A stretch of 64,000 bases of DNA. Source: an uncultured Anaerofilum sp. GTDB taxonomy: Bacteria; Bacillota; Clostridia; Oscillospirales; Ruminococcaceae. A model generated the notes under the pieces. That model had not been told where the DNA came from, did not search any database, and saw only the letters and a program-made list of their open reading frames with translations. A program made the position numbers and the translations under genes. Shown here in pieces: positions 27,316-28,184 of this stretch; the first letter of the stretch is position 1; every line of letters begins with the position of its first letter. The stretch covers positions 75,426 through 139,425 of the forward strand of contig CALWZC010000004.1 of NCBI GenBank assembly GCA_944385935.1. The letters are read 5' to 3'.

Positions 27316-28014
27316 TTGAAACAGAAAATCAGCTTTGTTCCTTTGGATGCAGACTTGCAACTTTGGCTATTGGAAAAATTGTTAAAGGAGCCACCCCAAA
27401 GCCCCTACACAGCAGAGTTTTTGCAAGGGGTTCGCAATCTAATTTGTGGACAAACGAGCTCGCTACTTCTAGGAAGTCCTGAACAAAAGGGAGTAGTGGA
27501 ACAGGGATTGTCCGAAAGCATTGTAGTGGGAGAGTTGGAAATATCCCCTAAAAATAGAAAGGTCATCCTACAAGGGAAAGAGATAAGCCTCACCCCAAAA
27601 GAATTTGATATTTTGTATTTTTTGGTGGAAAATAGGGGAGGAGTGTTATTCAACGACTTGCCTGCCCATTTTAGTGGAGCAGAGTTGGCAGCGGTACAAG
27701 CAAAATATATCGGGCTATTTCAAGCCGGCTGGTTTGTAGAATCCATGTGGAGCCAAACATTGGTGATTCACATGATTCGTACCCCAAAATTGCCTTTCTT
27801 GCAAAGCCGAGCTTCTGCACCTGTCACACTGCTTACCATGGCGGGAATTGTGGTGCTTACTATCATTCCTTTCACTGGTTTTGGTGCTATGCTAGGATTT
27901 ACTTCTTTGCCCATTGTTTATTTTGCTTATCTCATTCCTTGCATTGTGCTGTATATGGCTTTGGCAACCAGCTTGAAAAAAGCCTACGTTCGCCACTATG
28001 GAGAATTGCTATAA
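27316..28014 (+). CDS. mosaic protein: OmpR-type winged-helix fragment fused to a diverged copy of the MgtA C-terminal two TM helices
   Basis: TTG start after AGGGGGTG; middle segment [22 protein letters not shown] matches OmpR/PhoB trans_reg_C core; last ~105 aa about 50% identical to MgtA residues 780-885. Confidence 0.5.
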   Translation: [232 protein letters not shown]

Positions 28015-28028
28015 AGGGGGGTACCTGC

Positions 28029-28184
28029 ATGAATTGGAAAGCTGTATGGATGACCCTATTTCATACCACCAATTGGATGGGCATTGATGTAGGATTTTGG
28101 GTTGTATTCACTGCTGTGCTGCTGATTGTAGTGGCAATGAACCTTGTATTTTGGAGTATGAAGCCAAGACAATCGAAAAAATAA
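28029..28184 (+). CDS. 51-aa single-TM membrane peptide
   Basis: ATG 28029 after AGGGGGG; one hydrophobic helix IDVGFWVVFTAVLLIVVAMNLVFW then basic tail KPRQSKK; terminator follows. Confidence 0.4.
   Translation: MNWKAVWMTLFHTTNWMGIDVGFWVVFTAVLLIVVAMNLVFWSMKPRQSKK

Follow-up and report, generated by a model that had tools for sequence, protein, structure and literature searches.

In Salmonella mgtCBRU, the small membrane proteins MgtR and MgtU are encoded after mgtB, and MgtS is encoded elsewhere; MgtR, MgtU and MgtS modulate the pump, for instance through its stability or by FtsH targeting. In ToxR and CadC a complete cytoplasmic winged-helix domain is followed by one transmembrane (TM) helix and a periplasmic sensor. 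The locus described here lies in a 64,000-nucleotide stretch of DNA from an uncultured Anaerofilum sp. (the window, meaning the whole stretch that was analysed), in which the pump gene mgtA1 is followed by an ORF that an earlier note had read as an OmpR-type DNA-binding core fused to an old duplicate of the MgtA C-terminus, and then by a short ORF for a membrane peptide (pep51). A membrane-tethered DNA-binding remnant or a small-protein regulator of the pump had been suggested. We find instead that the ORF is very probably a scar, read through in frame, where 2,855 bp were deleted; it would be an ordinary gene remnant and no novel type of regulator, and the striking 'mosaic gene' is a deletion junction, an instance of a well-known kind. 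The features are collected in Table 1.

Table 1. Features of the mgtA1-pep51 region, in window coordinates.
Feature	Position	Strand	Description
mgtA1	24642..27299	+	Intact 885-aa Mg2+-type P-type ATPase, first cassette gene; five Pfam P-type ATPase domains
Shine-Dalgarno-like AAGGGGGTG	27300..27308	+	7 nt 5' of the regulator/fusion TTG; read from the sequence
Chimeric ORF	27316..28014	+	TTG start, 232 aa; regulator codons 1-108, mgtA2 codons 796-919 and stop
5' regulator remnant	27316..27639	+	Two N-terminal helices, linker, beta-platform and alpha1 kept; alpha2, alpha3 and wing gone
Deletion junction	27636..27647	+	The one copy left of an imperfect 12-bp direct repeat, GGGAGGAGTGTT
3' mgtA2 remnant	27640..28014	+	Last 124 codons and stop
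pep51, single-TM small protein	28029..28184	+	51 aa, intact; conserved downstream companion of mgtA2
Terminator-like hairpin and U-run	28186..28242	+	-26.4 kcal/mol, z=-6.6 (fold); 3' of pep51

The chimeric ORF and the 51-aa ORF both exist as had been claimed. The product of the upstream gene scores 892 bits against the TIGR01524 model (cut-off 610.75) and has one close database match at 98% and closest named homologues at about 67% (Enterocloster, Eisenbergiella). The fusion ORF begins 16 nt past mgtA1 with no terminator between, and the ribosome binding site (RBS) and TTG start proposed for it agree with the start of intact regulator homologues, which begin at the same position, 16-21 nt 3' of the mgtA1 stop. 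The C-terminal match of about 105 residues to MgtA was also reproduced: in BLASTP, fusion residues 126-232 align without gaps to MgtA1 779-885 with 54/107 identities (50%, E=5e-36), a similarity that is by this measure far above chance. Pfam places Cation_ATPase_C on residues 126-221 (profile positions 83-173 of 175, 28.9 bits, cut-off 27.3), and hydropathy marks two hydrophobic segments, at residues ~168-186 and ~198-216, which are presumably the last two TM helices of the pump. The ORF lacks membership of the MgtA/MgtB (type IIIB) family TIGR01524, of which it carries the last 124 residues only.

The regulator-like part is more limited than had been supposed. Trans_reg_C (PF00486) aligns to residues 87-111 over profile positions 1-25 of 77, and at 21.4 bits the fusion falls below the family cut-off of 26.2, the full domain being present in a 167-aa intact homologue, P0033. 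The description as an OmpR/PhoB core without a receiver holds for the receiver, since an N-terminal REC domain with a phospho-acceptor aspartate, the mark of a two-component response regulator, is present neither in the fusion nor in P0033; it does not hold for the core, since the OmpR-like piece, genuine as judged from the profile match, amounts to the first third of the effector domain (beta-platform and alpha1). NCBIfam response-regulator models likewise align to residues ~58-167 of P0033 only.

When the databases were searched with the fusion ORF, one protein matched over the full length (P0001, 99% identical). Many others, of the mgtA2 type, were 75-90% identical to the query but over its C-terminal 54% only, and these run on upstream as ordinary MgtA sequence. 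P0033 matched the N-terminal part: it follows the fusion through '...FLVENRG' with two substitutions only in residues 1-108 (S54I, S68N), and continues as 'EVFTKEQIY...WGIGYKFTDQL' to form a complete winged-helix domain.

Both parents are found side by side in contig L001 (ERZ17292902), whose gene order is DUF2871, NERD, guaA, mgtA1 (885 aa), regulator (167), mgtA2 (919), 51-aa ORF, GntR and ABC, so that its gene content matches the flanks of the window and the two are fully syntenic. In blastn, L001 1-10332 corresponds to window 17316-27647 (98.8% identity over 10.3 kb) and L001 13176-20504 to window 27636-34963 (99.3% over 7.3 kb); on these identities the two genomes are conspecific. Between the two blocks L001 carries 2,855 extra bp, and in the window the blocks overlap by 12 bp. 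This overlap is a repeat with the consensus GGGAG[A/G]AGTG[T/C]T, whose parental copies, GGGAGAAGTGTT in the regulator and GGGAGGAGTGCT in mgtA2, lie 2,855 bp apart. In a three-way alignment of the junction, the window sequence follows the regulator parent up to a point inside the repeat and the mgtA2 parent thereafter, and the two coding segments are joined in frame because each is cut at codon position 3. Over its last 124 residues the fusion departs from the intact MgtA2 of L001 at one position (S197 versus Y). Intact alleles were found in six contigs from several samples (L001, L002 and L101-L104); given this number, and the same architecture in at least 60 other species, it is unlikely that they are mis-assemblies. 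Intact regulator and mgtA2 genes in conspecific contigs, the 2,855-bp gap and the 12-bp microhomology together identify the ORF as a gene remnant. The earlier note had itself allowed that a longer gene disrupted in relatives would speak against its reading, and the conspecific intact alleles reveal just that.

These observations very probably reflect the following course of events. In the ancestral locus, which conspecific strains still have intact, mgtA1 is followed by the gene of a 167-aa receiver-less OmpR-type winged-helix regulator with its terminator hairpin, and then by mgtA2 (919 aa), which is preceded by a structured leader, and by the 51-aa peptide. A deletion between the 12-bp imperfect repeats, by microhomology-mediated illegitimate recombination or replication slippage, removed the last 59 codons of the regulator together with its terminator, and from mgtA2 both the promoter and leader and the initial 795 codons. 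By chance the two remnants were joined in frame, giving the 232-aa ORF.

The intact arrangement is by no means peculiar to this species. A scan of species-representative genomes for the regulator gave 253 loci, and among the best 80 of these, which were examined, regulator identity to the window species was at most 71% and the loci include members of Lachnospiraceae, Oscillospiraceae, Butyricicoccus, Clostridioides difficile, Erysipelotrichaceae, Negativicutes, Peptococcaceae and Olsenella. At least 60 diverse gut Firmicutes share the four-gene cassette: most contigs that were long enough carry mgtA1, the regulator, mgtA2 and the small peptide in this order, with 0.12-4 kb (6.7 kb in one locus) between the regulator and mgtA2, and in a few long loci mgtA2 was absent from the fetched flank. 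With the genes of the window species these loci share 53-67% identity in mgtA1, 56-71% in the regulator, 73-88% in mgtA2 (61% in one partial locus) and 44-67% in the small peptide. Where the gap is longer, it contains mgtC and the genes of a CDF transporter and of two small membrane proteins. Each pump scores above the cut-off of the NCBIfam equivalog model for Mg2+-translocating P-type ATPases (TIGR01524; 1129 bits for the intact mgtA2 of L001, cut-off 610.75), and mgtA2 also passes the enterobacterial-type subfamily model NF011702. The regulator family comprises 2,475 clusters annotated only as 'winged helix-turn-helix domain-containing protein'.

In every locus examined the two pumps share 43-48% identity over their full length, and this old paralogy explains why the fusion is 50% identical to MgtA1. 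The identity and the presence of an OmpR-like motif had been the grounds for the view that the ORF stems from an ancient duplicate of the MgtA1 C-terminus, which at an early time joined an OmpR core without a receiver and has been kept as a regulator. However, the supposedly old paralogous fragment is one residue in 124 away from the full-length mgtA2 of conspecific contigs, the 50% identity only mirrors the divergence of the two pumps, and the fusion occurs in one species-level lineage, all other taxa examined having separate, complete genes. The intact alleles thus refute an ancient fusion, to which we assign practically no probability. As to conservation downstream of mgtA in relatives, which had been proposed as a check, it is the peptide that is conserved, after mgtA2, and not the fusion ORF.

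The deletion took away the parts of both proteins on which function would depend. An AlphaFold2 (AF2) model of the intact regulator P0033, built on a 35-sequence alignment of database proteins, has a mean pLDDT of 79.6 and predicts helices at 12-24 and 32-43, a disordered linker, a four-strand beta-platform at 69-90, alpha1 at 94-105, alpha2 at 113-120, alpha3 at 132-143 and a wing at 153-163. The fusion ends its regulator part after alpha1, and the part that is lost is the most conserved of the family, being near-invariant across 35 taxa. DNA binding by the fusion is not plausible because alpha2, the recognition helix alpha3 and the wing are missing, and with it falls the proposal of a membrane-tethered DNA-binding remnant. 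On the pump side, 86% of mgtA2 lies inside the deleted interval and the fusion is without every catalytic part. The topology of P-type ATPases defines the native orientation of their C-terminal helices; from this general topology and the charge distribution, the 130-residue N-terminal part of the fusion would probably lie outside the cell, with no signal peptide to take it there. A single-sequence AF2 model of the fusion is of low confidence (pLDDT 46.7). Since the fusion product has neither recognition helix nor wing, lacks the ATPase domains and carries no export signal for its N-terminus, we infer that it is non-functional.

Transcription of the locus is likely to have changed as well. In L001 a perfect, terminator-like 18-bp hairpin stands directly 3' of the regulator stop, inside the deleted interval, and since this terminator is deleted, the fusion ORF and the pep51 gene would now be co-transcribed with mgtA1. 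The hairpin behind pep51, predicted from a fold of the sequence, would end this mgtA1-fusion-pep51 transcription unit; 3' of it, at 28248-28276, there is a promoter-like TTGACA-17-TATACT. Both the post-regulator and the post-peptide hairpins were revealed by folding and had been missed by a consensus terminator scanner. As a net result, strains with the deletion would lack both the second Mg2+ pump and the regulator.

The deleted interval of L001, outside the window, also holds a strongly structured mgtA2 leader (z=-7.35). In many loci there is a short leader ORF behind GAGGTGA, which begins MDSDGSPRRQR, or MEPDGSCIRRR in L001, and is followed by CUUGCCUC, complementary to the mgtA2 Shine-Dalgarno sequence GAGGUAAG; this putative sequestering pairing comes from inspection of the sequences and of one single-sequence fold. 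The N-terminus of the leader ORF resembles that of E. coli MgtL, taken for comparison as quoted in PMC8934632, and an MgtL-like leader ORF of intact mgtA2 may be regarded as a lead only. RNAalifold found no consensus structure and no covariation support in 39 mgtA2 leaders, whose divergence made for a poor MAFFT alignment. No M-box, Mg-sensor or other Rfam family was found at the gathering threshold in the whole window and L001, nor at E<=1 in L001 7150-10900.

As a polymorphism the deletion is frequent. Contigs L009 and L090-L100, which derive from at least 13 samples, several studies and several assemblers, carry the identical fusion, and 8 protein variants of it occur in the databases on about 15 contigs, the longest of 173.8 kb. 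A junction at a 12-bp repeat might arouse the suspicion that reads were mis-joined there to give a chimeric contig. Yet the recurrence of the scar in at least 13 independent assemblies marks it as a common allele; the same junction emerged from different pipelines (ENA, Logan, NCBI), in some cases within the very long contigs just mentioned, a repeat of 12 bp is too short to mislead modern assemblers, and the deletion alleles carry linked SNPs of their own. We therefore consider an assembly artefact highly improbable.

Three junction sequences were found: G..T in the window and seven other contigs, G..C in three contigs and A..T in two. They could have arisen through different resolution of a mismatched heteroduplex or repeat, through point mutations after the deletion, or because the deletion happened more than once. 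Three SNPs within 100 bp of the junction are fixed between all 13 deletion alleles and three intact alleles, which speaks for an origin that was mostly single, with recombination thereafter.

The persistence of the open frame raises the question of whether the fusion has acquired a function, as an expressed and selected small membrane protein that might be, for example, a partner or anchor of pep51 or a modulator of MgtA1. Several observations are in keeping with this. The 232-aa frame is open and full-length in 13 of 13 deletion-allele contigs, for all 8 protein variants, and the deletion allele is at least as common in databases as the intact one. The ORF has kept its own RBS close behind mgtA1 with no terminator between, and the pep51 RBS adjoins its stop. 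Furthermore, the sites that segregate among the deletion alleles number 9 synonymous to 4 non-synonymous in either half of the ORF, which at face value looks like purifying selection. However, an open frame of 699 bp is expected by chance at a divergence of about 1-2%. The synonymous sites are at intermediate frequency and in several haplotypes, compatible with standing variation or recombination; given these diverse haplotypes and the three junction variants, much of the variation may be standing variation that recombination brought in from intact genes, or may stem from repeated deletion. All non-synonymous variants are rare, and they change residues that the family keeps: in the MgtA2-derived half, among private substitutions, A137V and Y202C fall in invariant columns (67/67 intact orthologues) and R226H in a near-invariant one (64/67 intact MgtA2 orthologues). 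The polymorphism is consistent with standing variation and relaxed constraint, more so than with purifying selection, in a comparison of low power where the intact alleles covering the C-terminal segment are three and near-identical. One deletion-allele strain (contig L100) also has mgtA1 split into ORFs of 619 and 266 aa. Together with the missing recognition helix, wing and ATPase core, the probably external N-terminal 130 residues and the poor model, this makes an acquired function improbable in our view. We are similarly doubtful about a related possibility, that the scar is not inert and that the C-terminal helices of MgtA2 together with pep51, co-expressed with MgtA1 from its operon, might modulate it, perhaps in the way of MgtR, MgtU and MgtS, through stability or FtsH targeting; if this were true, modulation of MgtA1 would be the reason why the open frame and pep51 persist in a common allele.

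The peptide itself deserves separate attention. The features ascribed to it, a single TM segment, an RBS and a terminator, were all recovered: one hydrophobic segment (residues 23-41) before a C-terminal tail of charge +4, a GGGGGG motif directly 3' of the fusion-ORF stop, and the hairpin listed in Table 1. In mgtA2-bearing loci its homologues (tblastn, extracted ORFs) start 0-38 nt, mostly 4-21 nt, 3' of the mgtA2 stop and mostly behind an AGGAGG RBS. The family pattern is NW..[IL]W[MI].LFGTT.[WF]LG[LI][ND][IM]GFW...(TM)...MN[VL]VFW[SG]MKPK. A full HMMER scan gave 122 representative clusters, all of small free-standing proteins, and pep51 has no match among Pfam or NCBIfam families; we regard it from these comparisons as a conserved, unannotated small protein. 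In other species it is kept beside 3' fragments of mgtA2, the truncated pump gene there adjoining an element with three tandem tyrosine recombinases. A conserved single-TM protein of the same operon, in the manner of MgtR, MgtS or MgtU, is found for mgtA2 and not for the upstream mgtA1. The suggestion of a small-protein pump regulator thus stands as far as conservation beside a pump gene is concerned, but the pump in question is mgtA2 and not the mgtA that precedes it in the window. By position and conservation, it would be reasonable to consider pep51 a pump-associated small protein.

These results document a presence/absence polymorphism of a second Mg2+ pump and its regulator in a species of gut Clostridia. 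Intact, the cassette occurs widely among gut Firmicutes and has hardly been characterised, and nature supplies in the deletion allele a knock-out with which it can be studied. The disrupted cassette, especially pep51 and the MgtL-like leader, is of more interest than the scar itself.

The locus can be compared with several known systems. Like ToxR and CadC, the fusion combines OmpR-type sequence and TM helices in one polypeptide, but it cannot work in their manner because its winged helix is cut after alpha1 and its TM helices come from the tail of a P-type ATPase. As in bacterial pseudogenes left by microhomology-mediated (RecA-independent, slipped-strand) deletion, short direct repeats flank the lost segment (2.86 kb), one repeat copy survives, and the truncated genes are joined as a chimeric ORF. 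What sets it apart from the usual remnants of this kind is that the join happens to be in frame, that the allele occurs commonly in the population and that three junction variants exist. The intact cassette resembles the enterobacterial Mg2+ loci, where mgtA has the mgtL leader peptide, in that it encodes MgtA-type pumps, has the MgtL-like leader ORF and, in many taxa, carries mgtC beside mgtA2; unlike them, it has no PhoP/PhoQ and places a receiver-less OmpR-type protein between two pump paralogues, and of this cassette the window keeps only mgtA1 and the peptide intact. Finally, pep51 is, as are MgtR and MgtU, a small single-TM protein encoded directly after a pump gene, a likeness of position and size.

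The receiver-less regulator proved to be part of a wider locus. A regulator scan returned 253 loci from Clostridia, Erysipelotrichia, Negativicutes and Olsenella, and in the best 80 of the 253, which we examined (L010-L089), an OmpR-type winged-helix protein of 165-168 aa without a receiver domain is encoded 16-21 nt 3' of mgtA1 and, in most loci on sufficiently long contigs, upstream of mgtA2. Its winged-helix half is nearly invariant, and its 66-aa N-terminal part, consisting of two helices and a linker, is variable. The gap between regulator and mgtA2 varies in length and in many taxa holds accessory genes, among them mgtC (NF011912, 1e-41), a CDF transporter gene (TIGR01297), and genes for two small membrane proteins, one of 76-86 aa and the other of 103 aa, neither of which matched an NCBIfam family.

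We also observed unusual conservation of mgtA2: between Lachnospiraceae, Oscillospiraceae, Negativicutes and Olsenella (P0037, L040, L050, L053) amino acid identities are 73-88%, apart from a single partial locus at 61%; for comparison, mgtA1 is 53-67% identical. An mgtA2 fragment annotated from a Corynebacterium is 77% identical. This pattern suggests either that mgtA2 is under very strong constraint or that the cassette has spread horizontally.

Disrupted pump genes were found elsewhere. In another species only a 174-aa 3' fragment of mgtA2 is left, adjoining a recombinase-in-trio or Tn554-like element, which carries three tyrosine-recombinase genes in tandem, and the small peptide gene is retained 3' of the fragment, its product being 54% identical to the window peptide. 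Proteins from other taxa carry in-frame internal deletions of mgtA2 unlike that of the window: P0047 (272 aa) has the N-terminal ~145 aa fused to LLYNDLAAHFSG, at a junction ~3 codons or less from the window's right breakpoint on the mgtA2 side, and in the 402-aa forms P0054, P0058 and P0066 the N-terminal ~245 aa are fused to 'SIFDF...'. These internal deletions may reflect ascertainment bias, since they came from a search with the C-terminal fragment. In one contig with the deletion allele (L100), mgtA1 differs from the window copy by a 1-nt gap and is split into two ORFs of 619 aa and 266 aa, so that either both pumps are inactivated in this strain or the assembly is in error. Downstream of the locus, the synteny of the GntR/ABC operon is kept in all conspecific contigs.

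Positions of features at the locus and its homologues
Feature	Position	Other loci or context
51-aa peptide gene	window 28029-28184	homologues e.g. L011:12692-12859, L023:12808-12975, L003:7752-7919
mgtA2 leader	L001:10505-10794 (same-species intact locus; deleted from window)	also L011:9801-9893, L023:9917-10024, L078:8601-8693
Accessory-gene gap, regulator to mgtA2	L023:8633-9862; L013:8771-11069; L016:8651-9238	
Truncated mgtA2 and recombinase element	L003:3150-7734; L006:729-5307	also L004, L005
Split mgtA1	L100:328-2984	
Near-consensus promoter (putative), TTGACA-17-TATACT	window 28248-28276	3' of terminator
Operon: GntR-family regulator, ABC ATPase, ABC-2 permease	window 28301-30145	3' of near-consensus promoter
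Regulator match	~8001-8501	most of L010-L089

The leader 5' of intact mgtA2 is structured (z=-7.35 in L001), and one segment of it, CUUGCCUC, is an anti-SD sequence that complements the SD of mgtA2, GAGGUAAG. Rfam gave no match to the leader, and its alignment was too poor to support covariation analysis. Within it lies a short ORF with the N-terminus MEPDGSCIRRR or MDSDGSPRRQR, which resembles enterobacterial MgtL in sequence.

The 51-aa peptide is a member of a family of small single-TM proteins that is conserved and unannotated, comprising 122 representative clusters in a library of 1.84 billion proteins, for which no Pfam or NCBIfam model was found. In the mgtA2-bearing loci examined, the family genes start 0-38 nt (mostly 4-21 nt) past the stop of the mgtA2-type pump gene, mostly with an AGGAGG RBS. 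The peptide is a candidate pump-associated small protein, its gene occupying a position after the pump gene analogous to that of MgtR and MgtU 3' of mgtB.
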